Positions 1,206 through 53,448 of a stretch of 64,000 nt of DNA are shown one piece after another. Both the position numbers and the translations under genes were made by a program. The notes under the pieces are model-generated. The model was given only the letters and a program-made list of their open reading frames with translations. It was not told the origin of the DNA and searched no databases. Positions within the stretch are counted from its first letter, which is position 1. Each line of letters opens with the position of its first letter. The DNA is from Rhodocyclaceae bacterium. GTDB taxonomy: Bacteria > Pseudomonadota > Gammaproteobacteria > Burkholderiales > CAIKXV01. Location of the stretch: NCBI GenBank assembly GCA_020248265.1, contig JADCHX010000012.1, forward strand, positions 20,378-84,377. Reading direction: 5' to 3'.

Positions 1206-2450
1206 TCAGCCGGCCTGGTACACCGCACGTGCCGCGTCGACGCCCGCACCGCGGGTGAACCGGTGGTGCTCGCCCGCGAGTACTGCTTCCAGGGCCGCCA
1301 GGGTGGTCAGCACCGCATCGCGGCGCGCGTTGTAGCCCATCGCGCCGATGCGCCAGATGCGTCCGTGCAGCGGACCGAACGAGGTGCCGATCTCGATGTT
1401 GAACTCGTCCAGCATCGCGGTGCGGACACGGTCCCCGCTGACGCCCTCCGGTATCCAGACGCCTGTGACGTTTGGCATCTTGTTCGCCTTGTCGCCGAAG
1501 ATCTTGAGGTTCATCGCCTCTAGGGCTGCGACGATCGCGCGGCTGGCGAGGGCATGTCTTGCGAACACTGCCGCATGGCCCTCCTGCAGGAAGATGCGCG
1601 CGCATTCTCGTGCCGCGTAGAGCATGGAGGTGGCTTCAGTGTGGTGGTTGAGCGCTCGCTCGCTCCAGTAGTCGATGATCATCGCGAGGTCGAAGTAGTT
1701 CGACGCGATGATGCCTCCGGCGCCTGGCTGGTAGTTGGCCGGTCGCAATCCCTCCTCGACGTGGCGGCGCCGCATGATCACCTCGCACAGAGAGTCGGAC
1801 AGCGTGATCGGCGCGATGCCGGACGGGCCCGCGAGGCATTTCTGCAGCGCTCCGGTCACGCAGTCGATCTGCCAGGCTTCGACCGGCAGGGGGGTGCCGC
1901 ACAGCGATGCAGTAGCATCGACCTGGAGCATCACACCGTGGCGCCTGCACAGAGCGCCCAGTTCGGAGAGCGGCTGGAGCATGGTCGTCGAAGTGTCGCC
2001 CTGGCAGCAGGCCAGCAGCTTCGGGGAGAACGCGCGGATCTCGGCTTCGATCAGCGCCAGGTCGAACACCGTGCCCCATTCGGCCTCGATCACCCGCACT
2101 TGCGCGCCGACCCGACGCGCGATCTCGGCCTTCAGCTGGCCAAACCGTCCGAAGCTCGCCACCAGCACACGGTCGCCAGGCTCGACCAGCGACACCATCA
2201 CGGTCTCGATCGCCGAGCGCGCCGTACCGTCGATGCACAGGGTCTGCGCGTTGGACGTCTCGAACACGCCGCGATAGAGATCCTGGGTATCGCGCATGTA
2301 CTGGCGGAACTGGGGGTCGAACTGCCCGAGCAACTGCGCCGACATCGCGCGCAGCACGCGCGGATCTGCGTTGATCGGGCCGGGCCCCATCAGCAGCCGG
2401 GGCAGCGGATTGAGTTCGGACAATGCCTGCGTGGGTATCGAAGGTGACAT
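1206..2450 (-). CDS. Class V PLP-dependent aminotransferase (serine/alanine--glyoxylate aminotransferase type)
   Basis: The 414-aa ORF reads end to end like AGXT/SgaA-type enzymes (NPLPRLLMGPGPINADPRVLRAM...; GALQKCLAGPSG holds the expected PLP-lysine motif). The antisense ORFs over it are GC artefacts. Confidence 0.8.
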   Translation of the reverse strand: MSPSIPTQALSELNPLPRLLMGPGPINADPRVLRAMSAQLLGQFDPQFRQYMRDTQDLYRGVFETSNAQTLCIDGTARSAIETVMVSLVEPGDRVLVASFGRFGQLKAEIARRVGAQVRVIEAEWGTVFDLALIEAEIRAFSPKLLACCQGDTSTTMLQPLSELGALCRRHGVMLQVDATASLCGTPLPVEAWQIDCVTGALQKCLAGPSGIAPITLSDSLCEVIMRRRHVEEGLRPANYQPGAGGIIASNYFDLAMIIDYWSERALNHHTEATSMLYAARECARIFLQEGHAAVFARHALASRAIVAALEAMNLKIFGDKANKMPNVTGVWIPEGVSGDRVRTAMLDEFNIEIGTSFGPLHGRIWRIGAMGYNARRDAVLTTLAALEAVLAGEHHRFTRGAGVDAARAVYQAG

Positions 2451-2708
2451 GGTTCAACCGTGGCGTGGGAAGTTCAGGATACAAGCTGCACCGGACAAGT
2501 GTAGAACAGCGTCGGGCGGATCGGTCGAAATCGGCTTGCGCCCGTGTCGGATGCCAGCCGACGGCACTGGCGCGCGGGGGCCAGGGGACTACAATGGGGG
2601 CGGCCGTCGAGGCAGGGTCCGCAACCTGCGCGATGCCCGTGTCTGCCCGTCACCTCTTCGGCCGTCCATGCCCGACCCTTCCATCCCTTGCTGCCTGGCG
2701 GAGCACGC

Positions 2709-4935: not shown

Positions 4936-6024
4936 TCAGTCCGCCTTCGCGCCGGACACGCGCGCGACTTCCGCCCATCTGGCGATCTCGCGTCGGATGA
5001 AGGCACCGAACTGTTCCGGAGTCTGCGCGGCCGACGGCGTGGCACCCTGCTGGGCGAATCGTTCGCGCACCTCCGGCGATGCAACGGCCTTGAGCACCTC
5101 GAGGTTCAGTCGCTGCACGATCGGGCGCGGCGTGTCGGCCGGGGCCAGCATGCCGAACCAGATCATCAGTTCATAGCCGGGCAGGCCCGCTGCCTCGACG
5201 ACCGTCGGCAACTCGGGCAGGATCGGCAACCGGGCCCGCGAGGTGACGGCCAGCGCGCGCACCTTGCCGGAACGGATATGCGGTATCGCCGTTGGCAGCG
5301 GTTCGATCTGGATCTGCACCTGGCCGCCGATCAGGTCGGCGATCGCGGCCGCGCCCCCCTTGTACGGCACATGGACCATGTCGATCTTGGCCAGTGCCTT
5401 CAGCAGTTCGGCACCCATGTGCTGCGAGGTGCCGGCGCCTGCCGAGGCGTAATTGAGCGAGCCCGGCTTCGCGCGGGCCAGCGCGATCAGATCCCGCATC
5501 GAGCCGGCCGCAACCGAGGGCGTGACCAGCACGACGCTCGGCACTTCGGCCAGCGGGGCGATCGGTGCGAACGCCTTGACCGGGTCGTAGGGCAGATTGC
5601 GGTACAGCGCCGGGCTGACCGCGACGGTACTGGTCGCGCCGAAGGCGAGGGTGTAGCCGTCCGGATTGGCGCGCGCGGCGATGCCCAGCCCGAGCGTGCC
5701 ACCGGCGCCCGCCCGATTGTCGATGATGACCGTCTGCTTCATCTGTTCGCCGAGGCTCTGGCCGATGATGCGCGCGACCAGGTCGTTGATGCCGCCCGGC
5801 GGGAACGGCACGACCAGCCGGATCGGGCGATCGGGATAGCTGTTCGCGGCCGGTGGCTGCGCGGCGGCGGCCATGCCCGCCGTGCCGAACGTGGCAAGCG
5901 TCGACAGCGTGACGATCCAAGCGGCGGCCATGGCCACCTGCACTGCACGGGTGCGGCGAGTCCGGCCGCTGATGGTGTCGACACAACCGGTGGCGCCGCT
6001 GCCTGCTGCCATGCTCATCTCCAT
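4936..6024 (-). CDS. Tripartite tricarboxylate transporter substrate-binding protein (Bug/TctC family)
   Basis: A signal peptide is followed by YPDRPIRLVVPFPPGGINDLVARI..., NRAGAGG, YASAGAGTSQHM and VPYKGGAAA, all typical Bug-family motifs. The start is trimmed from track ORF 6378 to Met 6024, just upstream of the signal peptide. Confidence 0.8.
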   Translation of the reverse strand: MEMSMAAGSGATGCVDTISGRTRRTRAVQVAMAAAWIVTLSTLATFGTAGMAAAAQPPAANSYPDRPIRLVVPFPPGGINDLVARIIGQSLGEQMKQTVIIDNRAGAGGTLGLGIAARANPDGYTLAFGATSTVAVSPALYRNLPYDPVKAFAPIAPLAEVPSVVLVTPSVAAGSMRDLIALARAKPGSLNYASAGAGTSQHMGAELLKALAKIDMVHVPYKGGAAAIADLIGGQVQIQIEPLPTAIPHIRSGKVRALAVTSRARLPILPELPTVVEAAGLPGYELMIWFGMLAPADTPRPIVQRLNLEVLKAVASPEVRERFAQQGATPSAAQTPEQFGAFIRREIARWAEVARVSGAKAD

Positions 6025-6159
6025 GAAGTTTCCGGTGGACGACGACTGTGCGCCCCTGCGGGCGTACATGCATCGCGCGGCGCGGAGCATGGCACACTTG
6101 GAGCCCTTCGGCGAACCCCTGCAGGGATCCTGCGCGGGGCCGGTTTCAGGGAGCAGCAC

Positions 6160-6975
6160 ATGCGGGTGGCGATCATCGGGGCAGGCAGCATCGCGCGCAT
6201 CGCGCTGGAGCACACCCAGCGCGGCACGCTCGGCGATGTCGAGGTCGTGGCGCTGATGGGGCGCAGCATGAACTCGCGCGGCCGCGCGCTGGCGCAGGCG
6301 AATGGCTGTGCGTTCGTCGCCGATATCGACGGGCTGCTGGCGACCTCGCCGGACGTGGTGGTCGAGGCGGCCGGCCATGAAGCCGTGCGCCTCTACGCCG
6401 AGGCTGTGCTCGCGCGTGGCCTCGCGCTGGTCGTGCTTTCATGCGGCGCGCTGGCGGACGACGCGTTGCGCGGCCGGCTGGAGGCGGCTGCCCGTGCCGC
6501 CAGGGGCCTGCTGTACGTACCGTCTGGCGGCATCTGCGGACTCGACGGGGTCAAGACGATGGCCCTTGCCGGCATCGACGAGGCGTCGATCGCGGTGACC
6601 AAGCCACCGATCGCGTGGAAGGGCATCGCGTATGTAGACCGACTGGGCATCGACCTGGCGGCGCTGCGCGAGGCAACCGTCCTGTACGACGGACCGGTGC
6701 GCGAGGGCGCGGGCCACTTTCCGGCGAACGTGAACATCGCCGCCGGGCTGGCGCTGGCCGGCATCGGCTTCGATCGCACGCGGTTGAAGGTGGTGGCCGA
6801 TCCCGCGCTCACGCGCAACACCCACTTCATCGAGATCCGCGGCAAGGCGAGCGATATCTCGATCCGTCTGGCGAACGTCGCCGACCCGGAGAACCCGAAG
6901 ACCGCGTGGCTCGCCTGCTACAGCGCACTGTGTGCGATTCGAGAGGCGAGAAGCAACGTCCGTTACGGCACCTGA
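6160..6975 (+). CDS. L-aspartate dehydrogenase-like protein (NadX family)
   Basis: It has a Rossmann N-terminus MRVAIIGAGSIA. The C-terminal part (GGICGLDGVKT..., NTHFIEIRG) resembles the aspartate dehydrogenase domain. Only the last 272 codons of the 904-aa track ORF 4261-6975 are credible. Confidence 0.7.
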   Translation: MRVAIIGAGSIARIALEHTQRGTLGDVEVVALMGRSMNSRGRALAQANGCAFVADIDGLLATSPDVVVEAAGHEAVRLYAEAVLARGLALVVLSCGALADDALRGRLEAAARAARGLLYVPSGGICGLDGVKTMALAGIDEASIAVTKPPIAWKGIAYVDRLGIDLAALREATVLYDGPVREGAGHFPANVNIAAGLALAGIGFDRTRLKVVADPALTRNTHFIEIRGKASDISIRLANVADPENPKTAWLACYSALCAIREARSNVRYGT

Positions 6976-7005: not shown

Positions 7006-7599
7006 TCAGCCGTACAGACGACTGTGTTTCGGCACGCGCGCCATCAGGTATTCCATCTGGTCGACGAGGATGCGGCGGTTCTGAAGGATCATATGCTCAT
7101 GCCGGTTGGGCACATACGGCAGGTAGAGCAGCGGCATGCGCGCGGCCTCGGGCGTGCGGTTGTCTTTCTTGCTGTTGCACGCCCTGCAGGCGGTCACCAC
7201 GTTCATCCAGCGGTCTTCGCCGCCGCGCGACAGCGGCACGATATGGTCGCGTGACAGTTCCCGCTCGCGCAGGCGGTCGCCGCAGTACGCACAGACCTGC
7301 CGGTCGCGCACGAACAGCGCTGCGTTGATCAGTGCCGGTTCGCGCCGGAACTCCCTCGCGAACGAGCCCGACCCCTTGATCGCGATGATGCTCGCGGTCG
7401 AGAGTTCGGAGCGCTCTCCAGTGCTGCGCGACAGGCCGCCGTGGTAGGTGCGCACGATGCTGCCGATCGACCATGCCACCTGGTGCTTGGCGTGGTAGGT
7501 GATCGCCTCTTCGACCAGCAACCAGCGACGCGGTATCCCGCCTGGATCGACTTCCAGGATCAGCGGCTCACCTCGGGCGCGACTACCGAATGCAGTCAT
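7006..7599 (-). CDS. HNH endonuclease family protein
   Basis: HNH/zinc motif CAYCG...SRDHIVPLSRGGEDRWMNVVTACRACNSKKDNRTP. Confidence 0.8.
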   Translation of the reverse strand: MTAFGSRARGEPLILEVDPGGIPRRWLLVEEAITYHAKHQVAWSIGSIVRTYHGGLSRSTGERSELSTASIIAIKGSGSFAREFRREPALINAALFVRDRQVCAYCGDRLRERELSRDHIVPLSRGGEDRWMNVVTACRACNSKKDNRTPEAARMPLLYLPYVPNRHEHMILQNRRILVDQMEYLMARVPKHSRLYG

Positions 7600-7696
7600 G
7601 GTTCCCGAACATTAGGAACGATGGCGCGCGATGTCAAGCCGGATCGGCCTGGCAGGCAGGGCAGGGGCTTCGCATGTGGCCTGGCATGACGCCGGC

Positions 7697-7792
7697 TGGC
7701 GGAAGAGAGTGCGAGTCGAACGCACGGAGGACTGGATCACAGCCCTCACCGGGTTTGAAGTCCGGCCGTCCCACCGGGGACGTTTCCCTTCC
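7697..7792 (-). tRNA. selC: tRNA-Sec (anticodon UCA)
   Basis: Hand-folded 96-nt minus-strand RNA: GGAAGGGA-AA-CGTCCC-CGGT-GGGACG-G-CCGGA-CUUCAAA-CCCGG-[23-nt variable arm GAGGGCUG/CAGUCCUC]-GUGCG-UUCGACU-CGCAC-UCUCUUCC-G-CCA. It has the bacterial tRNA-Sec architecture: 8-bp acceptor stem, 6-bp D stem with 4-nt loop, UCA anticodon, long extra arm, 5-bp T stem and encoded CCA. It lies 20 nt downstream of selB. Confidence 0.9.
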
Positions 7793-7812
7793 AGTGCTGC
7801 GCGTGGATTATC

Positions 7813-9765
7813 TCACGCGTCTGGCCGTGCGTCCGTCTGCGCTGCCTCGCGGTAGACGTCGGACACCTTGCGCCGGAGCTTGCGTGCGTCGCCGACGCGC
7901 AACGTCAGCCCTGCGCTGTCGAAGTGTTCGAGGATCTGGATGGCGAGGCTGCGGCCGATGCCCGCCTGATCGCGATACTGCGCTGCATTGAACTGCCCGC
8001 CAGGGACGGCCTGGGCAGTCGCCTCGACCAGCCGTGCGAGCGCCACGATCGCCGTCCGCAGGTAGACGCGCTGCGGGTCGATGCGCACCAGTTCGCCGCG
8101 CTTGATCCGGCGCTGGAGCATGGCCTGCAGGGCCTTCTCGTCGAGTTTCAGCGTGGCGGCAATCTCGCGCACCTGCGGCGGCGCATTCGGGGTCTTCGAC
8201 AGCAGCGGCCGGACCCGCTTCCACATCGCCTCGTCGGCGCTGTTCGCCGCCGCGTCGAAGCCGGGCAGGCGGGCGAGGCCACCGGTGAGCTCCAGCGTGC
8301 GTGCCTGTACTGCATCGCGCAGCACTGCCTGCAGGATCTCGTCGGGCAGCGCGAGGCCCGCATTCTTCTGCAGCACGGCCAGTTCGATGCCCGTTGCCTG
8401 CGGGGATTTCACGTGGAAGCTGCGCACCTCGGCGAGCAGGGCCTCGCGCATCGTGGCGAGCCGGGCGGGCTCGAATGCGCGCCGCGACTCGCGTCCGAGT
8501 ACCTGCAGGCCGGCCGCCTTGTACAGACGCTGAGCGGCCTCGGCGGTGAGGTTGAAGCGGCGCTCGAACAGCGCGACATCGATGCCGGCCGTGGCGTGCG
8601 GCAGCAGGGCCTGAAGCACGTCCGATGGCGCTCCGCCATCGAGCGCCGCCAGTTCCAGCTGGCGCTCGGCGATCCGCCGGCGGCGCGGCGGCGGGAACGG
8701 ATCGATCACATGCCCGCCGCCGATCGTGCGCTGGGCAGAAAAGTCGCGCACGATGAAGCGGTCCCCGGCGATCGCACCGACCGGCTGGTCGAGCACGATC
8801 TGCGCGACCTCTGCGGTGCCCGGCGCGACGGACAGGTCGCGCCGCGTCGACAGGCGGCCGGTGACATCGGCGGTGCCCAGGTGCAGGTGCACCGGCGTCC
8901 AGTGGCGCAGCGGGTTCGCTTCGGTCGCCAGCGCGCGCAGGTGCACGTCGATGCGGCTGGTCGGGGCATGGATGGCGGGATCCACCAGCCACTCGCCCCG
9001 TGTGATCGAGTCTTTCTGCAGGTCGGCGCCGGTGAGGTTGACCGCGCACCGGGCACCGGCCGTCGCCTGTTCCACCGTTCGTCCCTGGACCTGCAGCCCG
9101 CGCACCCGTACGGTGACGCCGGACGGCGACAAAGACAGCGTATCGCCAACCTTCACGCGTCCGGCGAAGATGGTGCCGGTGACCACGGTTCCGCTGCCGG
9201 CCACCGTAAAGCAACGGTCGATCGCGAGCCGGAAGTGCCTGCCTTCGGAAGCCCCCAGCCGCTGGGCCGACAGCCTTGCCACGAGCGTCTCGCGCAGGGC
9301 GTCGACGCCGTCCCCGGTCATTGCCGACACCGCCAGCACCGGGGCGTCGCGCAGCACGGTATCGGCGACCAGCGCGCGCAGTTCCGCGGTCACGGCCTCG
9401 ATCCGCTCGGGTGCGACACGGTCGACCTTGGTGATCACGAGCAGGCCCTGGCGTACGTCGAGCAGGTCCAGGATCGCCAGGTGCTCGCGCGTCTGGGGCA
9501 TCACGCCGTCATCGGCGGCGACCACGAGAAGCACGAAATCGATGCCGGATACGCCGGCGAGCATGTTGCGCACGAAACGTTCATGGCCCGGCACGTCGAT
9601 GAAGCCGATCGCGCTGCCGTCGGGCAGTCGCAAATGCGCGAAGCCGATGTCGATCGAGATGCCGCGCCGTTTCTCCTCGGGCAGGCGATCGGTGTCGATC
9701 CCGGTGAGGCGCTTGACGAGCAGCGTCTTGCCGTGGTCGATATGGCCTGCGGTGGCAACGATCAT
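7813..9765 (-). CDS. selB: Selenocysteine-specific translation elongation factor SelB
   Basis: The N-terminus [43 protein letters not shown] carries the G1-G4 GTPase motifs ([12 protein letters not shown]). A long C-terminal winged-helix region follows. The start is trimmed from 10083 to ATG 9765. Confidence 0.9.
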
Positions 9766-9772
9766 CGCCGGG

Positions 9773-11158
9773 TCAGGCCGCCAGTAGCGGCAGTTGCGCG
9801 ACCAGCACCGCCTCGCCGTCGGATTCGAGGCAGCGCAGGTCGAGCAGCAGGGCGTTGTCGTGGATGCGGCCGACCACCGGCCGCGGCAGGGCGCGTAGCC
9901 GTAACGCGAGGCGGTCCAGGTGGCCGCCCCGGCCGGCGAACCGGATCGCGAGGGCGGCCGAGGGCAGGCGGTCGACAGGCAATGAGCCGCTGCCGATCTG
10001 GCTCGAACAGTCGACCACCTCGACCGTCGCGCGTTCGCCGAGTACCGCGGCGAACGCGGGTTGCAGGCGCATCGCGCAGGCACGGATATCCTCGCGCGGC
10101 CGCGTCAGCAGCCGCAGCGCCGGCAGCCGCTGGCGCAGCCGGTCGGGATCGAGGTACAGACGCAACGTGGCTTCCAGTGCGGCGATGGTCATCTTGTCGA
10201 GGCGCAGCGCCCGCTTGAGCGGGCATTTCCGGATGCGGTCGATCAGCGCCTTGCGGCCGACGATCAGTCCGGCCTGCGGACCGCCGAGCAGCTTGTCGCC
10301 GCTGAAGGTGACCACGTCGGCGCCGTCGGCCAGTGCTTCCTTCGGCGTCGGTTCGTGCGGCAGACCATAGGGAGTCAGATCGACCAGCGAACCGCTGCCG
10401 AGGTCCTCCAGCATCGGCAACTCGTGCGCGTGGGCGATGCCGGCGAGGGTCCTGGTGTCGACCGTCGAGGTGAAGCCCTCGACCTGGTAGTTGCTCGGGT
10501 GCACGCGCATCAGGGCGGCGGTCGAGCGCCCGATCGCCTCTTCGTAGTCGCCGCCATGGGTGCGGTTGGTGGTTCCCACTTCGCGCAGCTTGCAGCCGGC
10601 ACGGCTCATGATGTCGGGCATGCGGAATGCACCACCGATCTCGATGAGTTCGCCGCGCGACACGATGACCTCGCGGCGCGCCGCCAGCGCGGTCAGCGTC
10701 AGCAGTACCGCAGCCGCATTGTTGTTTACCAGAGTCGCGGCTTCGGCGCCGGTGATCCGGCACAGCAGCTTCTCGACGTGGCTGTCCCGTTCGCCGCGCC
10801 GGCCGGTAACGAGATCGAACTCGAGGTTGGACGGCTGGCCCATCACGGCCATCACTGCCTCGATTGCCTCCGGGGCCGCCCACGCGCGGCCGAGGTTGGT
10901 GTGCAGCACCGTGCCGGTCAGGTTCAGCACCGGCATCAGCCCGGGCCGGGTGTCCTGTTCCAGCAGTCGTTCACAATCGTCGAAGAGGGTGGCCGGTTCG
11001 AAGACCGTGGCCGTCGCCCGAAGCCGTTCGATTCCGGCGCGCACGGCATCCAGCGCGAGCGAGCGGCCATGCCGTTCGATCAACCGCTGGCCCTCGACCG
11101 ATCGCAGCAGGCGGTCGACCGAGGGCGGATGGTATGTTGCAGCGGCTGGATCGTTCAC
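9773..11158 (-). CDS. selA: L-seryl-tRNA(Sec) selenium transferase SelA
   Basis: SelA-typical strings [40 protein letters not shown] and [13 protein letters not shown] (PLP lysine). The start is assigned to GTG 11158, 8 nt after the upstream stop. The track ORF extends to 11392 without homology. Confidence 0.9.
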
Positions 11159-11166
11159 GGCATGGT

Positions 11167-11943
11167 CTAGTCTTCCCAGACCTTTTCGGGCAGCGGCAGT
11201 CCCTTCAGGTCTTCCGCCGTCAGCGGCTGGTCGGGCTCGATACCCATCCTCGACAGCAGGAACTGAAGCTGCCGGGTGTGCTGGGCCGAATGCCAGGCGC
11301 AGCGCTCGAGCAGGACGGACAACGGCTGCGCCCCGAAATAGGTCTGCACGACCTGCTTCGCTGTGGGGTCTGTCTTCTCGTGCTGCGCCCACCAGTCGTG
11401 AACCCGCTGGCGTACCTCGGCCGCATAGTCGGCCACCTGCTGCGGGCGCGTGATCGAATCCGCCGGCGGTTTCACCGGCTGTTCGATCGTGAACTCGATC
11501 CCCTGGACTGCTTCCAGCATGGCTTCCTGGATGCGGACCAGATGGTGCGCCAGTTCGCGATAGGTACGTTTGCGGCCGGACATCGGCAGCAGTTCATTGA
11601 ACTTGTCGAGGGGTAGCTGCGGCACGAAGCGCTGTGCCCCGGCCAGTACCATCTCTGCGCGCTGGACCAGCTGGGCAGGGGTGAGTGCCGGCCCGCCGTC
11701 GAACTGCAGGCCGAGGAACTTCGCCACTTCAGGGATCACCTGGCCGAGTACCCACTGGTCGCCGCGCGCGACTACCGGCGTGGTCTTGGCACCGAGCGCC
11801 GTCAGTTCTGCAAGCCCTGCGGGGTCGTTGAAGATATCGATGATGTCGAATTCGATATCGAGTCGCGAAAGAAACTCTTTCGTCCGGAGGCAGCTCGTTC
11901 AGCCGGGCTTGGTGAAGAAGCGGATGCGTTGTGCCTGGGCCAT
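11167..11943 (-). CDS. Putative selenoprotein: glutaredoxin-fold domain (P-G-U-T-S-C, U = in-frame TGA at 11899-11901) fused to a DinB-fold domain
   Basis: ATG 11943 lies 5 nt downstream of GGGAGG. Translation gives [70 protein letters not shown]. It then runs in frame (204 nt = 68 codons) into track ORF 11167-11739, which is DinB-like (HHLVRIQEA..., [10 protein letters not shown]). The TGA occupies the first Cys position of a Grx CxxC motif. selA/selB/selC follow directly. The ORF track reports only the part downstream of GTG 11739. Confidence 0.7.
11866..11882 (-). promoter_or_regulatory. Candidate bacterial SECIS hairpin
   Basis: The RNA 5'-CGAAAGA-GUU-UCUUUCG-3' forms a 7-bp stem (or a 6-bp stem with an AGUUU loop). 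It starts 16 nt after the UGA and has G-U in the apical loop. A possible lower helix pairs GAG with CUC. Folded by eye only. Confidence 0.5.
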
Positions 11944-12144
11944 CGTGACCTCCCTCGATCGGTTGCGCCGCGCTATGCCGCGACGAGTCCGATATTTTAG
12001 TCCATCGTGGCGTTCATCGTGCGGTCATCGTCGGCCGCAATTGCAGGACGGCTGCTCACCGTGGATGCCGGCGGGGCCGGACGTATACTCTGGGATGACC
12101 GCGGATGCACTGCGGCGTCCATCGACGACAAGGGGGGAGTGATC

Positions 12145-12948
12145 ATGCGCAGGAACCGTATCAAGCAGCTCTGGCGCGAAGGAAAGCCGGCAGTCGGCGG
12201 ATGGCTGTCGATCCCCCACTGCTTCGCGGCCGAAGTGATGGCGCATACCGGCCTCGACTGGCTGTGCATCGACATGCAACACGGCTGCATCGATTACTCC
12301 GATGCGGTTCCGATGCTCACCGCGATCTCCACCACCGACGTGACACCGCTGGTGCGCGTGCCGTGGAACGAGCCGGCGATGATCATGAAGGTCCTCGACG
12401 CAGGGGCCTATGGCGTGATCGTGCCGATGGTCAGCAATCGCGCCGAGGCAGAGCGGGCGGTGGCGGCCTGCCGCTACCCGCCGCGCGGCATGCGCAGCAA
12501 CGGACCGAACCGGGTGCTTTACTACGCGGGTGCCGATTACCAGAAGCATGCGGACGAGGAAGTCGCCTGCGTGGTGATGATCGAGACGCCGGAAGGCATC
12601 GAGAAGATGGACGAGATCATTTCGACGCCCGGGGTCGACGCCGCCTACATCGGGCCGACCGATCTTGCGCTCGCGCTCGGCCTGCCACCGGTGATGGACA
12701 ATGACGAGCCCAGGCATGTCGCCACGGTCGATGCGATCCTCGCGTCGTGCAAGCGCCACGGCGTGGTCGCCGGCATCCACACCAACAGCTCGAAGTTCTC
12801 GCAGCGCTACATCGACCAGGGCTTCGGCATGGTGATGCTGGCACCCGACCGTGTTGCGATGTCGAACTACGTGAAGGCCGAGGCCGCGCGTCTGACCGGC
12901 TGGTCGCCGATGAAGCCGGTCGGGGCTCCCTCTGGTGGTGGCTACTAG
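12145..12948 (+). CDS. HpcH/HpaI family class II (pyruvate) aldolase
   Basis: An AGGGGGGAG RBS precedes ATG 12145. Family strings include GGWLSIPHCFAAEVMAHTGLDWLCIDMQHG, VRVPWNEPAMIMKVLDAGAYGVIVPMV, YPPRGMRS and IETPEG. The start is trimmed from 12007. Confidence 0.8.
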   Translation: MRRNRIKQLWREGKPAVGGWLSIPHCFAAEVMAHTGLDWLCIDMQHGCIDYSDAVPMLTAISTTDVTPLVRVPWNEPAMIMKVLDAGAYGVIVPMVSNRAEAERAVAACRYPPRGMRSNGPNRVLYYAGADYQKHADEEVACVVMIETPEGIEKMDEIISTPGVDAAYIGPTDLALALGLPPVMDNDEPRHVATVDAILASCKRHGVVAGIHTNSSKFSQRYIDQGFGMVMLAPDRVAMSNYVKAEAARLTGWSPMKPVGAPSGGGY

Positions 12949-12966
12949 GCCGGCGCGGAGCCATCG

Positions 12967-14139
12967 ATGTTCCTGTACGAACACGACGCGAAGTCGCTGC
13001 TCGAGACGTTCGGCGTCGCAGTGCCGCAGGGTTGCTGGGTAGGCGCCGATGGCGCGCTCGAAGGCGCGATGCCTGTGGGCCCGCTGATCGTCAAGGCACA
13101 GGTGGCCGCCGGTGGGCGCGGCAAGGCCGGGGGCATCCGGCATGCCGCCGATGGCGTGGCTGCGCTCGAGGTGGCGCAGGCCCTGCTGTCGGTGCCGCTC
13201 GCGGGGCTCGCGGTCGCCGGCTGCCGGGTCGAGCAGGCGATTGCCGGCGCGGCCGAAGTCTATCTGTCGCTCACGCTCGATGCATCGCGCGCGCAGGTCC
13301 AGGTGCTGGCGTCCGACCATGGCGGGGTCGACATCGAATCGGCCGCGCCCGACGCGCTGGTGCGAGAGTGGGCTCCGATCGATGCGGCTGCGATCGCTGC
13401 AGCGGTGGGCCGCGCGGCGCAGCGGCTGTCGCCGGCGAACCGCGAGGCGGTGGCCGATGCCGGCGAACGGCTGGCTGCGGCGTTCGTCGGGCTCGATGCA
13501 CAGGTGGTCGAGATCAATCCGCTGTTCGTGCTGCCCGCAGGCGGGCAGGCGCGATGGCTGGCGGCCGATGCGAAGCTGATTACCGACGACAACGCCCTGT
13601 ACCGGCAACCGGTCCTGTGCGGGCTGCTCGAGCGCGCGGCCGCGCGCTACCCGGAAGCGGCGCGCAAGTGGCGGCATGGCTGCGACTACGTGGTGGTCGA
13701 TCCGGCCGGCGAGATCGCGCTGCTGACCACCGGGGCCGGCCTGAGCATGATGCTGATCGATGAACTGCGTGCGCAGGGACTGCATCCGTACAACTTCCTC
13801 GACGTACGCACCGGAGGGCTGCGCGGCGATCCGCAGCGGCTGGTCGACGTGCTCGGATGGATGCGCGACGGCGCGCAGGTGCGCGTGCTGCTGGTGAACA
13901 TCTTCGCAGGGATCACCCACCTCGGTGAATTCGCGCGCCTGCTGGTGCAGGCGCTGGACGCGGTGCCGGAGTTCAGCGTGCCGGTGGTCGCACGGCTGGC
14001 CGGTCCGGGTTTCGGCGAGGCGGTCGAGATTCTCGGTGCGCGGGGCGTCAAGGTCGAGACCGACCTGGCGCGGGCGATCGACGCGGTACGCCGCGAACTC
14101 GCCTCCGCAGGCGTCCTGGCGCCCGGGGTGCTGCAGTGA
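12967..14139 (+). CDS. Succinyl-CoA synthetase beta-subunit-like ATP-grasp protein (acid--CoA ligase, ADP-forming, beta chain)
   Basis: SucC-like N-terminus MFLYEHDAKSLLETFGVAVPQG, followed by KAQVAAGGRGKAGG, EINPL and NIFAGIT. The substrate is unknown. Confidence 0.75.
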   Translation: MFLYEHDAKSLLETFGVAVPQGCWVGADGALEGAMPVGPLIVKAQVAAGGRGKAGGIRHAADGVAALEVAQALLSVPLAGLAVAGCRVEQAIAGAAEVYLSLTLDASRAQVQVLASDHGGVDIESAAPDALVREWAPIDAAAIAAAVGRAAQRLSPANREAVADAGERLAAAFVGLDAQVVEINPLFVLPAGGQARWLAADAKLITDDNALYRQPVLCGLLERAAARYPEAARKWRHGCDYVVVDPAGEIALLTTGAGLSMMLIDELRAQGLHPYNFLDVRTGGLRGDPQRLVDVLGWMRDGAQVRVLLVNIFAGITHLGEFARLLVQALDAVPEFSVPVVARLAGPGFGEAVEILGARGVKVETDLARAIDAVRRELASAGVLAPGVLQ

Positions 14140-15029
14140 CCCCGCGCCCGCCTTTTGCGCTGTCGGTCGACCGCCACACCCCGGTCCTTGTGCAGGGCAT
14201 CACCGGGCGCGCCGGGCAACGCCATGCGTGCATGATGCGCGATGCAGGCACCTCGATCGTGGCCGGTGTCAGCGCACGCGCCGACGCGCGTCCGGTGGAA
14301 GGCATCCCGGTGTTCGCCGATTGCGCGTCTGCGGTGGCGGCCACCGGTGCGGTAGCCAGCGTGCTGCTGGTTGGTGCTGCGCAGGTCCTTCCGGCGGTGA
14401 GCGAAGCACTGGCTGCCGGCATCCGGCTGCTGGTCACGCCGACCGAAGGGGTGCCGGTGCATGACGCCGTCGAAATCCGCAACCGCGTCGACGCGGCAGG
14501 CGCGACGTGGATCGGCGCATCGACGCCCGGCATGGCGATACCCGGCGAGGCCAAGCTGGGTTTTCTCCCTGACGTATCGCTGGCACCCGGACCGGTCGCG
14601 ATGGCCTCGAAGAGCGGCACGCTGTCGTACGAGGCGGGCTTTCGCCTCGTGCAGGCCGGGCTCGGGCAGTCGGCGTGGATCGGCGTCGGCGGCGATCCTG
14701 TGAAAGGCACGCGCTTCGCCGACCTCGCGCCCTGGCTCGCGCGGCACGGCCGCACCGAAGCGGTGCTGCTGGTCGGCGAAATCGGCGGCGACGAGGAAGA
14801 ATCGTTTGCGCGCGCGATCGCCCCCAGCGGCCTGGACAAGCCGGTGGTGGCGCTCATCGCCGGACGCACGGCCCCGGGCGGGGTCAGCATGGGCCATGCG
14901 GGCGCGCTCACCTGGGGCAGCTTCGGCACCTGGGAAGCGAAGCGGGCGGCGCTGGCCGATGCCGGCGTGGACGTATGCGCGACGATCGACGAGGCGGTGC
15001 AGGCGCTCGCGCGCGCGCTCGGGCGATGA
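14136..15029 (+). CDS. Succinyl-CoA synthetase alpha-subunit-like protein (CoA-binding, phosphohistidine subunit)
   Basis: VLVQGITGRAG CoA-binding motif, SKSGTLSYE, and GHAGA with the catalytic His. There is a 4-nt overlap with the beta-like gene. Confidence 0.8.
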   Translation: MTPRPPFALSVDRHTPVLVQGITGRAGQRHACMMRDAGTSIVAGVSARADARPVEGIPVFADCASAVAATGAVASVLLVGAAQVLPAVSEALAAGIRLLVTPTEGVPVHDAVEIRNRVDAAGATWIGASTPGMAIPGEAKLGFLPDVSLAPGPVAMASKSGTLSYEAGFRLVQAGLGQSAWIGVGGDPVKGTRFADLAPWLARHGRTEAVLLVGEIGGDEEESFARAIAPSGLDKPVVALIAGRTAPGGVSMGHAGALTWGSFGTWEAKRAALADAGVDVCATIDEAVQALARALGR

Positions 15030-15066
15030 CACTCGAACAGCAACAGGCAGCTGAACGGAGGACACC

Positions 15067-16233
15067 TTGGATTTTCGACTGACCGCTGAACAGCGGGCGC
15101 TGGTGGATGCGGTGGCACAGGTCAGGCGCGACGTGCTCGAACCGAACGCGATGAGATGGCTCGACGGCACCTGGCCCGCCGAGAACCTGAAGGCACTCGC
15201 CGGTATCGGCGTGATGGGCATGGCGGTGCCCGAAGAGTACGGCGGATCCGGCATGGGCATCTTCGAGACCGCGCTCGCGCTCGAGGAGATCGGCAAGGCG
15301 TGCTACGTCACGGCCATGGCGGTGCTCGGCGAGGTGGGTACCCAGACGCGAATCATCTCGACCTACGCGCCCGAGCATGTCAAGCGTGCGATCCTGCCCC
15401 GGGTCGCCACCGGCGAGGCCATCCTTTCGATCTGCATGACCGAGCCCGATGCCGGAACCGACGTCGCGAACTACCGGACGAACACGCGCATCGACGGCGA
15501 GAAGGTGGTGATCAACGGGGTGAAGACCCTGATCAGCCGCGCCGACATCGCCGACATGATGGTGGTATTCACCCGGGTCGACAACGTGCCTGGCGGCGCG
15601 GGTATCGGTTGCGTGCTGGTCGAGAAGGGCGCGCCCGGTGTCACAGCGACTGCCAAGTATCACACGATGGGCGGCGAGTACCTGTGCGAGGTGGTGTTCG
15701 ACAACTGCGTGCAGCCGCGCGAGCACCTCGTGATCACCGACAACGGTATCAAGCGCCTGATGAGTGCGTTCAACACCCAGCGTATCCTCAATCCGGCCAT
15801 CTGCCTCGGCCTGGCCGAAGGCGCGCTCGAGGCGTCGGTGCGCTATCTGCGCGACCGCTCGGCGTTCGGCAAGCCGATCGGCGAGTTCCAGGGCATGCGC
15901 TGGAAGGCGGCCGACATGTTCGTCGACATCGAGGCTGCACGCAGCCTGCTCTGGCGGGCCGCGCACTCCGGCGACCAGTTCCCGGACCCGACGCTCGCGG
16001 CGGCGGCGAAGATCTACTGCAACGAAATGGGCATCCGCGTGACCAGCGAAGCGGTCCAGGTCCACGGTGGCTACGGCTTCACCGACGAATTCGCGGTGTC
16101 GCGCTTCTTCCGTGGCGTGCGCTACGGCAGCCTCGGCGGCGGCACCACCGAGACGCTGCGCAACCTGGTCGCGCGCAAGCTGGTCGACGACATGGACCTG
16201 GCGACCGGGCTGGCGGGCCTCGGTACTTTCTGA
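15067..16233 (+). CDS. Acyl-CoA dehydrogenase family protein
   Basis: 388 aa with the typical ACAD layout and strings (LTEPDAGTDV, FNTQRI, IYCNEMGIRVTSEAVQVHGGYGF, GGGTTETLRNLV). Confidence 0.85.
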   Translation: MDFRLTAEQRALVDAVAQVRRDVLEPNAMRWLDGTWPAENLKALAGIGVMGMAVPEEYGGSGMGIFETALALEEIGKACYVTAMAVLGEVGTQTRIISTYAPEHVKRAILPRVATGEAILSICMTEPDAGTDVANYRTNTRIDGEKVVINGVKTLISRADIADMMVVFTRVDNVPGGAGIGCVLVEKGAPGVTATAKYHTMGGEYLCEVVFDNCVQPREHLVITDNGIKRLMSAFNTQRILNPAICLGLAEGALEASVRYLRDRSAFGKPIGEFQGMRWKAADMFVDIEAARSLLWRAAHSGDQFPDPTLAAAAKIYCNEMGIRVTSEAVQVHGGYGFTDEFAVSRFFRGVRYGSLGGGTTETLRNLVARKLVDDMDLATGLAGLGTF

Positions 16234-24871: not shown

Positions 24872-25861
24872 TTACTGCAGTGGCGCCAGCTTGCCCTCGC
24901 GCACCAGCCGTGCATAGCGTTCGACGTCGCTCACCAGGAACTTCGCGAACTCCGCACCCGGATGCGGCACCGGCTCTGCAGCGATCTGGGTGAGCCGGGT
25001 CTTCAGACGATCTGTCTGCATCGATCGGATCACCGACTGCTCGAGCGTGGCCAGCACGTCCTTGGGCGTGCCATTCGGCGCGAACAGCGCGAACCAGCTG
25101 CCGAACTCGAATCCGGCGAACGTTTCCGATATCGACGGGACGTCGGGCATGGCCGGCGAACGCTTGCGGGCGGTCGTCGCCAGCGCCCGTACCTTGCCGC
25201 CGCTGATCTGGCCGACGGCGGATCCGGCGAGATCGAACAGCATGTTGACGCGGCCGGCGATCAGGTCGGGGTACACGGCACCGCTACCCTTGTACGGCAC
25301 ATGCGTGATCGTGACGCCGCCGCGATCCTGGAACAGCTCGCCGGCGAGGTGACTGCTCGTGCCCGGACCGGAGGAGCCGAAGAACAGGGCCCCCGGCTTC
25401 GCTTTCGCAGCGTTGACCAGGTCGGTCACGGTCTTCCACGGACTGTCTGTGGCGATTACCAGCAGGTTGGGCACCGTGGCGATGCCGGCGACCGGCACCA
25501 GGTCCTTGCGCGGGTCCCAGTTCAGGCGCATCAGGCTGACGTTGGTGGACACGGACAGCGACCCGAGCAGCAGCGTGTATCCGTCCGGCCGACTCTGCTT
25601 GGCCACGTACTCGGCACCGATATTGCCGCCGGCACCCGGGCGGAGTTCGATGATCACGTTCTGGCCGAGCAGTTTTGTCATCTCGATGCCGAATTCACGG
25701 CCAAGCACTTCGGCGGAGCCGCCGGGTGCGAAGGGCACGATCATCGTGATCGGGCGCGTCGGGAACGTCGGGGCAGCGCCCTGGGCAAGCGCGCTGCCAG
25801 CCGCCGCGAGCGCGGCGGCTGCCGTTGCGAGGGAAAGAATTGCGGAACGGGTATTGGTCAT
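24872..25861 (-). CDS. Bug/TctC family substrate-binding protein
   Basis: Signal peptide, then FPTRPITMIVPFAPGGSAEVLGR, LRPGAGG, SSGPGTSSHL and VPYKGSG. The start is trimmed to ATG 25861. Confidence 0.8.
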   Translation of the reverse strand: MTNTRSAILSLATAAAALAAAGSALAQGAAPTFPTRPITMIVPFAPGGSAEVLGREFGIEMTKLLGQNVIIELRPGAGGNIGAEYVAKQSRPDGYTLLLGSLSVSTNVSLMRLNWDPRKDLVPVAGIATVPNLLVIATDSPWKTVTDLVNAAKAKPGALFFGSSGPGTSSHLAGELFQDRGGVTITHVPYKGSGAVYPDLIAGRVNMLFDLAGSAVGQISGGKVRALATTARKRSPAMPDVPSISETFAGFEFGSWFALFAPNGTPKDVLATLEQSVIRSMQTDRLKTRLTQIAAEPVPHPGAEFAKFLVSDVERYARLVREGKLAPLQ

Positions 25862-25952
25862 GAGGGTCTGTCTCGGGTGGAAGCAGCGCCTGCACGGCGC
25901 ACAACGGATTGCATCATACAAAACGCGTCAACTATGCCATTAGTCGGGCCGT

Positions 25953-29682: not shown

Positions 29683-30779
29683 GGCGCCTGTCCGCGCGCG
29701 CGGCAGGGGCGGTGTCGCCCGTTGTCAGTCAGCGCAGGCGGCTGGCGCACGCGGGTGCCCTGCTGCTGCTGGGTACGCTCGGGGCCGGTCCCTTTCAGGC
29801 ACCGGCGGCTGCGGCCGCGCCAGCCACCGACGCGCAGGCCTGGCTCGTGCGTGCCTCTGCCGCCGCCCGTACTGCCAGCTACAGCGGTGTCTATGTCTAC
29901 ACCTGTGCCGGCATCACCGAGACCGCGCGGGTAACGCGCCTGCGCAACGCCAGTGGCGATGCCGAGCGCATCGAGTCGCTCGACGGTACTCGCCGCGAAG
30001 TGGTGCGCCGCGGTGACGAGATCCACTACTTCTTCGTCGATTCGAAGACGGTGCGGGTCGACCGGCGCGTGTCCGGCCGCAGCTTTCCCGACTTCCTGCC
30101 ACAGGATCCGTCGACCTTGGCAGCCTACTACTCGATCGAGGTGGGGCCGGTCGACCGCGCGGCGGGGCGTGCGGTCCAGGTGATCCGGCTGCGCGCGAGG
30201 GACGGCAGCCGCTACACGCAGGAGGTCTGGGCCGACCAGCAGTCGGGCCTGCCGGTGAAGCGACGAGTCATCGACGAGCGCGGGGACATCATCGAGCAGT
30301 TTGTTTTCACCGAACTGTCGGTGGGCGAGCGTCTGAGCCCCCGCCATGCGATGCCCAGCCGGCGCACCGGCTATGCGGGCTGGACAGTCGAGAACAGCTC
30401 TGTCGAGGAAGCTCGGCAGCCAGGCGCGGGCCCGCTCGCCCAGTTGCCGGCAAAAGGGGGCGATGCTGCTCCAGCGCCCTTCCCGGAGCCGCGGATGCTG
30501 CCGCCGGGCTTCCGCAAGGTGATACAGGTATCGCGCACGTTGCCAGGGCACGATCGCCCGGTTATGCAGTCCGTCTACAGCGATGGCCTCGCCACGCTTT
30601 CCGTATTTGTCGATCCCGACGTGGCACGCGTGGCTGGCCATGAGGGCATCAGTCAGCGGGGAGCGGTCGGCGTCATCACCCGCGCTGCGGGAGACCGGGC
30701 GGTGATCACCGTCGGTGAAGTGCCTGCAGCCACGCTGCGCAAGGTGGCCGATTCCATCGGTCCGCTCGCTTCGCGCTGA
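29679..30779 (+). CDS. rseB: Sigma-E regulatory protein RseB/MucB
   Basis: ATGA overlap with rseA, a signal peptide, and the AQAWLVRASAAARTASYSGVYVY block typical of the MucB/RseB N-domain. Confidence 0.75.
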   Translation: MRRLSARAAGAVSPVVSQRRRLAHAGALLLLGTLGAGPFQAPAAAAAPATDAQAWLVRASAAARTASYSGVYVYTCAGITETARVTRLRNASGDAERIESLDGTRREVVRRGDEIHYFFVDSKTVRVDRRVSGRSFPDFLPQDPSTLAAYYSIEVGPVDRAAGRAVQVIRLRARDGSRYTQEVWADQQSGLPVKRRVIDERGDIIEQFVFTELSVGERLSPRHAMPSRRTGYAGWTVENSSVEEARQPGAGPLAQLPAKGGDAAPAPFPEPRMLPPGFRKVIQVSRTLPGHDRPVMQSVYSDGLATLSVFVDPDVARVAGHEGISQRGAVGVITRAAGDRAVITVGEVPAATLRKVADSIGPLASR

Positions 30780-30949
30780 AGAGGCTTGCGCTGTTGCAAG
30801 ACGCGGGCAGGTCGGCCGGACTTGTTTTTGGCGGTCTCGGCGCCTATGTTCCATGCGCGCCGTTCACGCGCAGCGCGCCGGCCTGGCTGAAGCGAGCGCC
30901 GCTGTCCTGCCCGGTCCCGGGCTGTTTTCCACGCATCCATGGTTGCCAA

Positions 30950-32425: not shown

Positions 32426-32430
32426 TTCAA

Positions 32431-32468
32431 GCCGGCTGCGGCGACCGATTCTCGCCGCCGCAGCCGGC
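32431..32468 (+). terminator. Stem-loop downstream of degP (putative terminator)
   Basis: GCCGGCTGCGGCG (32431-32443) pairs perfectly with CGCCGCAGCCGGC (32456-32468) across a 12-nt loop. The downstream T tract is weak. Confidence 0.45.
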
Positions 32469-32662
32469 AGGCATTTCAATGGCGCAGCTTTTCTGCTAGG
32501 ATTCAGTGTGTTATGTGGGCTGCGGCCCACTTTTCATTTGTGCGCCGGTTTCTCGCGCCGCGGCGGTCGTTCTGCGCCCGCTCGTGGCTGCGTCGCATCC
32601 GGCCGGTCGGGCCTGCCGATCGGCCCGCTAGTTACTTTCCGAACGATCCTGTTGCCCCTACG

Positions 32663-33106
32663 ATGACTGTCACTGCTTCCGTTGCCCACATAGTCGAGAC
32701 TGCCCTTGGCGGGCTCGGCTACGAACTGGTCGACCTCGAGTTCGGCCAGGGGCGCTCGCGGTTGCTGCGGGTGTTCATCGACAAGCCGGAAGGCATCGGC
32801 CTCGCGGATTGCGAACGGGTCAGCCGCCACCTCACGCAACTGTTCGCGGTCGAGTCGATCGACTACGACCGGCTCGAAGTGTCGTCGCCGGGCCTGGACC
32901 GACCGCTCAGGAAAGTTGCCGATTTCCAGCGCTTTGCGGGTGAGCAGGTCAGGGTCACCATGCGGGCGCCGATCGCCGGGCGGCGCAATTTTTCCGGCGC
33001 GATTCGCGCGGCAGACGAGCTTGCGTTCGAGCTCGACGTCGAAGGTCAACCGGTCAGGCTGGAGTTCGCGAATCTCGATCGCGCCCGGCTCGTTCCGAAG
33101 CTGTAG
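32663..33106 (+). CDS. rimP: Ribosome maturation factor RimP
   Basis: GYELVDLEF...[18 protein letters not shown]......[15 protein letters not shown], positioned upstream of nusA. Confidence 0.85.
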
Positions 33107-42332: not shown

Positions 42333-42409
42333 GTGCCCGTAGCTCAACCGGATAGAGCACCGGCCTTCTAAGCCGGCGGTTGCGCGTTCGAGTCGCGCCG
42401 GGCACGCCA
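42333..42409 (+). tRNA. tRNA-Arg (anticodon TCT)
   Basis: Hand fold: acceptor GTGCCCG/CGGGCAC, D arm GCTC/GAGC, anticodon arm CCGGC-CTTCTAA-GCCGG, T arm GCGCG-TTCGAGT-CGCGC, discriminator G, encoded CCA. Confidence 0.9.
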
Positions 42410-42499: not shown

Positions 42500-42576
42500 G
42501 GTGGCTGTAGCTCAGCTGGTAGAGTCCCGGATTGTGATTCCGGTTGTCGTGGGTTCGAGTCCCATCAGCCACCCCA
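42500..42576 (+). tRNA. tRNA-His (anticodon GTG)
   Basis: G(-1) followed by acceptor GTGGCTG/CAGCCAC, anticodon arm CCGGA-TTGTGAT-TCCGG, T arm GTGGG-TTCGAGT-CCCAT and encoded CCA. Confidence 0.9.
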
Positions 42577-48025: not shown

Positions 48026-48113
48026 GCTGAGCCGCCGCCAGCCGGTGGCGCTACACTGGGAGCCGCGCGAGCGCATCACCCGACCGCCCCAACCTGATCC
48101 GGAACCACTGACC

Positions 48114-53446: not shown

Positions 53447-53448
53447 GG

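Follow-up and report, generated by a model that had tools for sequence, protein, structure and literature searches.

Predicted Grx-DinB selenoprotein gene ahead of selA, selB, and selC

A 64,000-nucleotide (nt) stretch of DNA from a Rhodocyclaceae bacterium (contig JADCHX010000012.1; hereafter called the window) very probably carries, at 11943-11167 of the minus strand, one gene for a 258-residue selenoprotein in which a glutaredoxin (Grx)-fold domain is joined to a DinB/YfiT-type domain. The reading frame runs from an ATG at 11943 to a TAG at 11169-11167 through 258 sense positions and contains a single in-frame TGA, at codon 15, which would encode selenocysteine (Sec, U). The mechanical list of open reading frames (ORFs) in the window contains only 11167..11739 (190 amino acids [aa]). 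This shorter ORF, which begins at GTG 11739, shares the frame of the longer gene, and the ATG lies 204 nt, or 68 codons, further upstream.

The initial annotation of the window had proposed an unannotated selenoprotein here, with the TGA replacing the nucleophilic cysteine (Cys) of a Grx motif, and had noted that the ORF track gave only a DinB-like protein from GTG 11739. We found GGGAGG, the 5-nt spacer, ATG 11943, TGA 11901-11899, and the shared frame of the DinB ORF exactly where they had been placed, and the 190-aa ORF was confirmed. The same was true of selA, selB, and tRNA-Sec, which lie directly downstream on the same strand as judged by Pfam, ARAGORN, and Rfam. When Cys was placed at codon 15, the string across the TGA that had been described as Grx-like matched Pfam Glutaredoxin over aa 9 to 63 (E = 1.2e-11, 45.1 bits; cut-off, 22.9), and DinB_2 was matched over aa 122 to 226 (E = 1.4e-8, 35.6 bits; cut-off, 24.8). 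The comparative data presented below strongly support the selenoprotein reading.

The TGA and both of its flanks are conserved in a Sec/Cys family

To identify relatives of the predicted protein, we searched ~5.8 billion proteins. As had been expected of standard gene callers, the N terminus was missing from the public calls of orthologues: among the 13 closest proteins (58 to 92% identity), 11 were N-terminally truncated calls of 194 to 237 aa, named "DinB" family or "hypothetical," and the remaining 2 were a fragment of 152 aa and a call of 277 aa whose N terminus was unrelated. Relatives at 42 to 49% identity were full-length proteins of 250 to 260 aa with both Grx and DinB_2 domains, and these had Cys in the column of the TGA. 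The DNA upstream of three truncated calls contained the missing N terminus, and in each the TGA occupied the equivalent codon.

A scan of one genome per species recovered 13 loci that were 73 to 97% identical over residues 1 to 258, and TGA was present in 13/13. The carriers are uncultured Burkholderiales/Betaproteobacteria metagenome-assembled genomes (MAGs), which probably come from lakes and reservoirs, to judge by isolate names. TGA was found in 16/16 orthologous loci (13 from these species-level MAGs) and in 17/17 close sequences. A metagenome scan with the family alignment added 80 loci, 74 of which contained the motif, with TGA in 37 and TGC or TGT in 37; because these 80 were chosen as the loci most similar to a Sec-form query, the Sec share is possibly inflated. 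Distant sub-clades (42 to 51% identity) accounted for 35 TGA loci, with sequences such as FWRPG-U-TSCL, LFTQPG-U-SSCL, and FWQPH-U-TSCL. Overall, TGA stood at the same codon in 54 loci spanning 42 to 97% identity, and 41 homologues had TGC or TGT there, so that homologues with Cys or TGA in the aligned column, which the initial annotation had proposed as a check, are plentiful. The column sits within the invariant motif P-G-[C/U]-x-S-C-L-R-x-x-E-F-L. This pattern is far beyond chance.

We also ran a profile search, independent of these scans, against 1.84 billion cluster representatives (50% identity clustering), and it returned 261 clusters at an E value of ≤1e-30. Among the best 150 of the 261 clusters, 74 had an N-terminal CxxC and ~70 were N-terminally truncated calls, which is the pattern expected if many of the latter conceal a TGA. 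On this evidence, Grx-DinB is a widespread Sec/Cys family rather than a one-off, with about half of the sampled members predicted to use Sec. We also constructed a midpoint-rooted neighbor-joining tree of 91 unique family members, a biased sample. Sec forms occupied all of the deep, diverse branches, and Cys forms fell into one large clade and two small groups. The presence of Sec on deep branches, together with a hairpin core common to most Sec branches (see below), suggests, tentatively, that Sec is ancestral in the Grx-DinB family and was replaced by Cys several times.

Coding constraint was measured by pairwise Nei-Gojobori comparison of the window gene with nine orthologues. The ratio of nonsynonymous to synonymous substitution (dN/dS) was 0 to 0.27 for codons 1 to 68, which span the TGA, and 0.05 to 0.31 for codons 69 to 258, the DinB part; the purifying selection sought across 11739-11943 is thus present. 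The position of the ATG, 14 codons ahead of the TGA, was conserved among orthologues. A GGAG-type motif preceded it at equal distance in most close orthologues, and sequence farther upstream was unconserved.

These data bear on a simpler account, in which translation truly ends at the TGA, the actual gene encodes a DinB protein from GTG 11739 or another internal start, and the upstream 68 codons are a decaying Grx remnant. All public orthologue calls begin downstream of the TGA, as such an account would have it, and the mechanical ORF begins at 11739. However, the called starts vary by orthologue (from residue ~22 to ~107), and none of the internal starts is conserved. Purifying selection is strong on codons 1 to 14 as well as on codons 16 to 68, the TGA has been kept with both flanks in 54 loci at 42 to 97% identity, and residues 1 to 14 are needed to complete the Grx fold. 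Nor would a remnant retain a hairpin built of rare codons. Constraint on both sides of the TGA, with a conserved ATG and unconserved sequence upstream of it, rules out that this segment is a decaying remnant or that it is a separate leader ORF. We give the remnant account almost no credence, and it is already untenable on the comparative data.

A SECIS-type hairpin follows the TGA in Sec forms

The stretch 11840-11901, which runs from the TGA onward, had been singled out as a place to look for a selenocysteine insertion sequence (SECIS). A hairpin of this type, CGAAAGA-GUU-UCUUUCG, is present there at 11866-11882 and is specific to TGA forms. It lies within the coding sequence, starting 20 nt after the UGA, with a spacing of 23 nt from UGA to loop. 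The published model for the bacterial SECIS (bSECIS) has a 4- to 16-bp upper stem, a UGA-to-loop distance of 16 to 37 nt, and a minimum free energy (MFE) of ≤-7.5 kcal/mol (PMC13188914, Fig. 2). The window hairpin fits the loop, stem, and spacing criteria of that model (GUU, 7 bp, and 23 nt), and its MFE including an outer stem is -10.5 kcal/mol. The global fold of an 81-nt stretch was not significant (z = -0.42); the signal is confined to the local hairpin and to the comparison of Sec with Cys forms.

Codons 20 to 26 showed no synonymous change in the 17 close sequences, and flanking codons varied. Since R-T-K-E-F-L is conserved in Cys forms too, the proper test for a SECIS is at synonymous sites, and we counted codons in unique sequences (41 Sec forms and 35 Cys forms). 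ACG for Thr21 was used in 34/41 Sec forms versus 1/35 Cys forms, AAA for Lys22 in 38/41 versus 0/35, TTT for Phe24 in 33/41 versus 6/35, CTT for Leu25 in 34/41 versus 0/35, and TCG at residue 26 in 40/41 versus 1/35 (Fisher p = 4e-8 to 3e-19). Sec forms accordingly read ACG-AAA-GAG-TTT-CTT-TCG, while Cys forms encode K-E-F-L as ACC-AAG-GAG-TTC-CTC. In this 67% GC genome, AAA makes up 9% of Lys codons, TTT makes up 6% of Phe codons, and CTT makes up 3.8% of Leu codons; the naive joint expectation of AAA, TTT, and CTT is ~2e-4.

We then scanned explicitly for hairpins that follow the bSECIS loop and spacing rules and have an ungapped stem of ≥5 bp. A qualifying hairpin was found in 42/42 unique Sec forms versus 3/36 Cys forms (p = 6.5e-19). 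Three classes were distinguished. The common class, with a spacing of 23 nt, comprised 34 sequences. The second, CUCGGUCC-GUG-GGAUCGAG and close variants, comprised 7 sequences of one Sec sub-clade (loci L025, L026, L027, L040, L041, L081, and L089). Here the element lies 34 to 52 nt past the TGA, with a spacing of 37 nt, the upper limit of the published bSECIS model, and the common AAA/TTT/CTT hairpin has been lost. The third class is a long GC-rich stem in L004. Replacement of the RNA element while the TGA persisted would be difficult to account for if the UGA were not decoded.

Sequence alone does not identify the inserted residue, and read-through of the UGA by a near-cognate tRNA (Trp or Cys), or a reassigned code, is the alternative to Sec-tRNA that has to be weighed at this point. 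TGA is the stop codon of 20/29 confident, Pfam-supported genes in the window, so the code has not been reassigned. Moreover, the read-through site is accompanied by a SelB-type hairpin that is wanting in Cys forms, the gene heads selA-selB-selC, sel genes accompany TGA forms only, and the position is that of the catalytic Cys of CxxC, a classic site of Sec/Cys exchange. Near-cognate decoding is therefore highly improbable. Under the reading that we favor, the ribosome would read UGA codon 15 as Sec, and the in-gene hairpin would recruit SelB carrying Sec-tRNA(Sec). The SelB encoded in the window carries the SECIS-binding winged-helix domains (Pfam SelB-wing_2/3).

Domain architecture and comparison with known systems

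Coordinates of the gene, its domains, and the elements around it are given in Table 1. A Pfam DinB_2 match was obtained for 13/13 family members. When the window protein was aligned with 21 Cys forms, the invariant positions of the Grx half included P13, C/U15, S17, C18, L19, R20, E23-F24-L25, and P56 (in T-T-P56-V-V), and those of the DinB half included R124, R126, R129, H134, R137, E213, R214, W217, H218, H222, and R224. A C-terminal G-L-P-L-P…W motif was invariant as well, and the DinB-type domain is conserved as tightly as the Grx part. In pattern, the arrangement H134...H218-x3-H222 (His...HxxxH) resembles the metal-binding triad of DinB enzymes, a three-His site known from YfiT, and it is a putative metal site.

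We modeled the structure of the closest Cys homologue, P0014, which is 49% identical to the window protein (predicted local distance difference test score [pLDDT], 92.9; predicted template modeling score [pTM], 0.87). In Foldseek comparisons, its N-terminal domain matched BC3987, a small NrdH/Grx-like redoxin, with a target-normalized template modeling (TM) score of 0.88, and small redoxins of the Grx/NrdH type were also matched in a profile search of the PDB with the N-terminal domain. The C-terminal domain matched the DinB/YfiT structures 6iz2 (DR0053; TM, 0.84), 3di5 (BCE_4655), 2p1a, 2f22, and 1rxq (YfiT; TM, 0.65), all with target-normalized TM scores of 0.65 to 0.84. No solved chain matched both domains of the model in Foldseek, and sequence searches of the PDB with the DinB half gave spurious matches only. 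Like the DinB/YfiT superfamily members DR0053, BCE_4655, and YfiT, the protein thus has a four-helix bundle and a DinB_2 match above the cut-off, but it is only 13 to 16% identical to the solved members.

YfiT-type proteins act as bacillithiol S-transferases that depend on a metal, and mycothiol or glutathione serves in related enzymes of the DinB fold; the free thiol is activated for S-transfer or for maleylpyruvate cis-trans isomerization. Whereas these enzymes take a free low-molecular-weight thiol, Grx-DinB has an attached Sec/Cys center that could replace the cofactor. The order of a thiol-handling Trx-fold domain followed by an all-helical substrate domain recalls the logic of glutathione S-transferases (GSTs), and weak whole-chain Foldseek matches to GSTs were obtained (root mean square deviation, 11 to 17 Å; TM, ~0.3). 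The helical domain of GSTs has a different fold, which makes this an analogy and not homology.

Among sequence families, the N-terminal domain was most similar in NCBIfam and PDB searches to NrdH/YruB/mycoredoxin-type redoxins and to the UXX-star families. Scores against NrdH (TIGR02194) and UXX-star (NF041212, NF041211, and NF047338) were 38.4, 33.1, 26.7, and 19 bits, versus cut-offs of 85.75, 66, 100, and 97 bits, respectively. Because these values are far under the curated cut-offs, the protein is not a member of either group. No NCBIfam model scored above its cut-off for the Grx-DinB protein, and the DinB half had no match at all.

Stand-alone Sec-glutaredoxins (PF00462, UxxC) already count among the selenoprotein families verified by experiment (PMC13188914, Table 1). 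The window protein resembles them in its Trx/Grx fold, in the placement of Sec at the head of a UxxC motif close to the N terminus, and in having a putative in-gene SECIS after it. Its N-terminal domain is 30% identical to an 81-aa reference Sec-Grx from the deep-Sep supplement, and the Sec residues of the two fall in one alignment column; the 122-aa Geobacter-type Sec-Grx reference of that supplement showed no detectable similarity. Unlike these single-domain references of 81 and 122 aa, the window protein has 258 aa with an added DinB-type domain of ~170 aa, and its motif is U-T-S-C, in contrast to U-P-[WY]-C in the stand-alone proteins.

Table 1 Features of the predicted Grx-DinB selenoprotein gene and the adjoining sel genes in the window
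Feature	Coordinates	Strand	Remarks
Grx-DinB selenoprotein coding sequence	11167..11943	-	258 aa plus stop; predicted Sec at residue 15; from translation, Pfam, full-length Cys homologues, and orthologues
Shine-Dalgarno-like GGGAGG	11949..11954	-	5 nt upstream of ATG 11943-11941
In-frame TGA, predicted Sec codon	11899..11901	-	Residue 15; first position of U-T-S-C redox motif
Cys18 codon, putative resolving Cys of UxxC	11890..11892	-	Invariant in alignment of window protein and 21 Cys forms
Core SECIS hairpin CGAAAGA-GUU-UCUUUCG (putative)	11866..11882	-	7 bp, GUU loop; from folds, synonymous-site conservation, and Sec-versus-Cys codon contrast
Extended SECIS, outer stem CGAG/CUCG (putative)	11859..11897	-	-10.5 kcal/mol over 60 nt; outer stem variable among orthologues
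Glutaredoxin-fold domain	11755..11919	-	Pfam, aa 9-63; cis-Pro strand TTPVV
DinB/YfiT-type four-helix-bundle domain	11170..11688	-	aa 86-258; Pfam DinB_2, Foldseek
Invariant DinB His residues	H134, 11544-11542; H218, 11292-11290; H222, 11280-11278	-	
selA (selenocysteine synthase)	9773..11158	-	GTG start, 8 nt past selenoprotein stop; Pfam SelA, E = 9e-164
selB (Sec-specific elongation factor)	7813..9765	-	ATG start, 7 nt past selA; Pfam GTP_EFTU, Beta-barrel_SelB, SelB-wing_2/3
tRNA-Sec (selC), anticodon UCA	7697..7792	-	20 nt past selB; ARAGORN; Rfam RF01852, 72.9 bits

Linkage to the Sec decoding genes

The gaps between the selenoprotein gene, selA, selB, and selC are 8, 7, and 20 nt, from which we infer that the four genes would be cotranscribed. 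On the coding strand, no terminator-like site was found between them; the single minus-strand match lies inside selB. A scan for sigma-70-like promoters in 7500-12200 found none and is uninformative for a genome of 67% GC. The selenoprotein-selA layout of the window recurs in L001, L003, L005-L017, and L022. In all, sel genes or tRNA-Sec flank 17/18 close-clade loci, 4 distant Sec loci, and 0/40 Cys loci. The distant loci differ in gene order: selA-selB lies ahead of the gene in L026, the gene lies ahead of selA in L056, and the order in L041 is selB, tRNA-Sec, a DsbA-like selenoprotein gene, and the Grx-DinB gene.

In the close, freshwater clade, tight spacing of the four genes with no coding-strand terminator-like site between them, and a layout conserved in 17/18 loci, might mean that the Sec codon also serves as a selenium sensor tuning selA and selB expression, in addition to a real selenoenzyme role. 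However, no sel gene lies beside 31/35 distant Sec-form loci in the flanking DNA examined, and the others have different orders, as in L026. The Sec codon is thus not maintained for operon control in general, and we regard a sensor role in the freshwater clade as improbable.

The linkage has parallels in other sel-clustered selenoproteins, such as the DsbA-like UxxC protein of L041, which are likewise linked to the decoding machinery with a bSECIS just past the UGA. The window differs from these in encoding a Grx-DinB fusion and in having no formate dehydrogenase; neither formate dehydrogenase nor other selenoprotein candidates were found within the 64 kb. In the DNA examined, the sel genes had no formate dehydrogenase gene next to them, and Grx-DinB may therefore explain the persistence of the Sec trait in carriers.

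The DsbA-like gene of L041 (2384-2989, plus strand) has its TGA at 2426-2428 and encodes MNEPIVLEIFSDYV-U-PWCY, with the Pfam DSBA match beginning right past the TGA. It belongs to a known DsbA-like UxxC selenoprotein family, and tRNA-Sec is found at L041:1344-1439. L041 is thus a small "selenoprotein island" with selB, selC, and two selenoproteins. In the window, an HNH endonuclease gene (7006-7611, minus strand) lies just downstream of tRNA-Sec; one also follows the sel cluster in L001 and L003, and this neighbor might indicate that the cluster is mobile or was acquired recently.

A functional lead from a natural gene fusion

P0168 (L102:3373-5538, plus strand), 721 aa in length, joins a complete MmgE/PrpD enzyme and a Cys-form Grx-DinB unit in a natural fusion, and it is the only gene fusion and the only direct functional link that we found for the family. 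Its gene lies in an operon with the order TonB-dependent receptor, PrpF-family protein, fusion, and MFS transporter. MmgE/PrpD genes also lie ≤3.3 kb from the family gene in 8 loci, which include both Sec and Cys types. The fusion, the proximity of MmgE/PrpD genes, and the divergent HpcH/HpaI cluster of the window (see below) point to di- or tricarboxylate catabolism. Together with the invariant arginines, the fusion suggests a chemistry that involves organic polycarboxylates. An anionic organic acid is the most likely substrate, possibly a di- or tricarboxylate with unsaturation that is processed alongside MmgE/PrpD-family enzymes. We consider a family role with organic polycarboxylates to be possible and put it forward as a tentative lead.

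In the mechanism that we envisage, the selenolate of U15 would be the attacking nucleophile of a reaction at or with the DinB metal site, and Cys18 would resolve the selenenyl-sulfide intermediate as in dithiol Grx/NrdH chemistry. The DinB domain would supply a His3 metal site and, to bind an anionic substrate, a pocket rich in arginine, and the built-in thiol or selenol may stand in for the free thiol cofactor of DinB-fold enzymes. Taken jointly, these ideas would have a tethered U-x-x-C replace the thiol cofactor and attack a polycarboxylate, perhaps an unsaturated electrophile of the aconitate or itaconate type, beside MmgE/PrpD and PrpF; Sec would be ancestral; and this gene, not formate dehydrogenase, would keep the Sec operon in the freshwater clade. 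That the whole of this combination holds is rather unlikely.

A different function would follow if the protein handles selenium itself, reducing selenite or selenodiglutathione or passing selenide to SelD, which would explain the sel linkage. This linkage recurs in four separate sub-clades, and a class-V aminotransferase gene (1206-2453, minus strand) lies ~5 kb from the sel cluster of the window. We take the class-V aminotransferase Pfam family to include NifS cysteine desulfurases and selenocysteine lyases, and it is conceivable that the encoded enzyme is a selenium-mobilizing partner. In addition, the selenium donor of SelD is an open question (PMC13188914). Against these points, Cys forms are common without sel genes in the flanking DNA examined (0/40), and sel adjacency is often a mere block inheritance of the Sec trait, L041 having a DsbA-like selenoprotein gene as well. 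Furthermore, the only fusion found joins the family to MmgE/PrpD and not to selenium metabolism. We judge direct handling of selenium to be a poor prospect.

Several observations weigh against the Sec assignment or the function that we propose. The core hairpin alone has an MFE of approximately -6.4 kcal/mol, and the threshold of -7.5 is reached only with the variable outer stem. Rfam, searched at the gathering threshold and at an E value of ≤10, matched tRNA-Sec and returned no family for the hairpin. selD was not found within the 64-kb window. The GG-x-D-D-type motif, the classical glutathione-binding signature, was not visible by inspection of the alignment. A neighborhood enrichment analysis gave no universal gene partner for the family. 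Finally, MmgE/PrpD and TctC genes are abundant in the lineage, and one pair lies at 52 to 54.6 kb of the window, 40 kb away from the gene; because both families are expanded in the genome, proximity to the Grx-DinB gene has to be read against a high background.

TctC, PCMT, and phosphonate-binding neighbors were considered as partners and set aside, since they look like lineage synteny. The window contains four TctC ("Bug") tricarboxylate-receptor genes (4936-6438, 24872-25927, 47859-49124, and 53449-54588) and an MmgE/PrpD gene at 52085-53581.

Relation to the known selenoproteome

A 2026 inventory lists 119 selenoprotein families and subfamilies, with distinct architectures as distinct entries (PMC13188914). 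It contains no DinB-containing family, and the words DinB, DUF664, mycothiol, and bacillithiol are absent from it. The BSepDB paper, the GOS selenoproteome paper, and the deep-Sep paper with its supplements do not mention DinB either. Our literature search found no paper relevantly combining DinB, glutaredoxin, and selenoprotein, and NCBIfam release 20 has no dedicated model for Grx-DinB. The initial annotation had proposed that a Sec-glutaredoxin fused to a DinB-fold protein would be a plausible, uncharacterized selenol-dependent transferase or reductase, a function that the protein may have. Sec-glutaredoxins with UxxC are already a verified family (PMC13188914). The novelty is the conserved two-domain DinB fusion of a UxxC Trx-fold selenoprotein, not Sec-Grx as such, and some members may have been silently counted as "Grx" in large surveys.

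Relative to the 119 families of the inventory, this would be the first DinB-fold selenoprotein, and a widespread family (261 clusters) would be added to the bacterial selenoproteome. The UGA would be decoded by a conventional mechanism, and further selenoprotein families are discovered regularly. The public calls, from JGI, NCBI, and others, share a systematic error in that they begin past the TGA, by which the catalytic domain is lost from protein databases; as a consequence, both Sec use and the Grx-DinB architecture are undercounted. With predicted Sec forms, Cys forms, and three SECIS classes in one family, Grx-DinB offers a natural experiment on Sec/Cys exchange and SECIS turnover, and the MmgE/PrpD fusion is a concrete entry point to the function of an uncharacterized DinB subfamily.

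Other features of the window

The window is chromosomal, as indicated by rimP-nusA-infB, pnp, smpB, and guaB-guaA. Two other pairs of coding regions in the same frame across a TGA were considered as read-through candidates and rejected, as Pfam identified them as ordinary adjacent genes: a trypsin/PDZ protease gene with rimP (30719-33106, plus strand) and guaB with guaA (57548-60766, plus strand). Divergent from the selenoprotein gene, a cluster at 12001-16233 (plus strand) encodes an HpcH/HpaI lyase, two succinyl-CoA-ligase-like subunits, and an acyl-CoA dehydrogenase; this cluster, also conserved in L001 and L003 and partly in L004, looks like a CoA-dependent catabolic cluster for C4/C5-dicarboxylates. 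Downstream of pnp, ordinary tRNA genes (Rfam RF00005) were found at 42333-42406 and 42501-42573 (plus strand).

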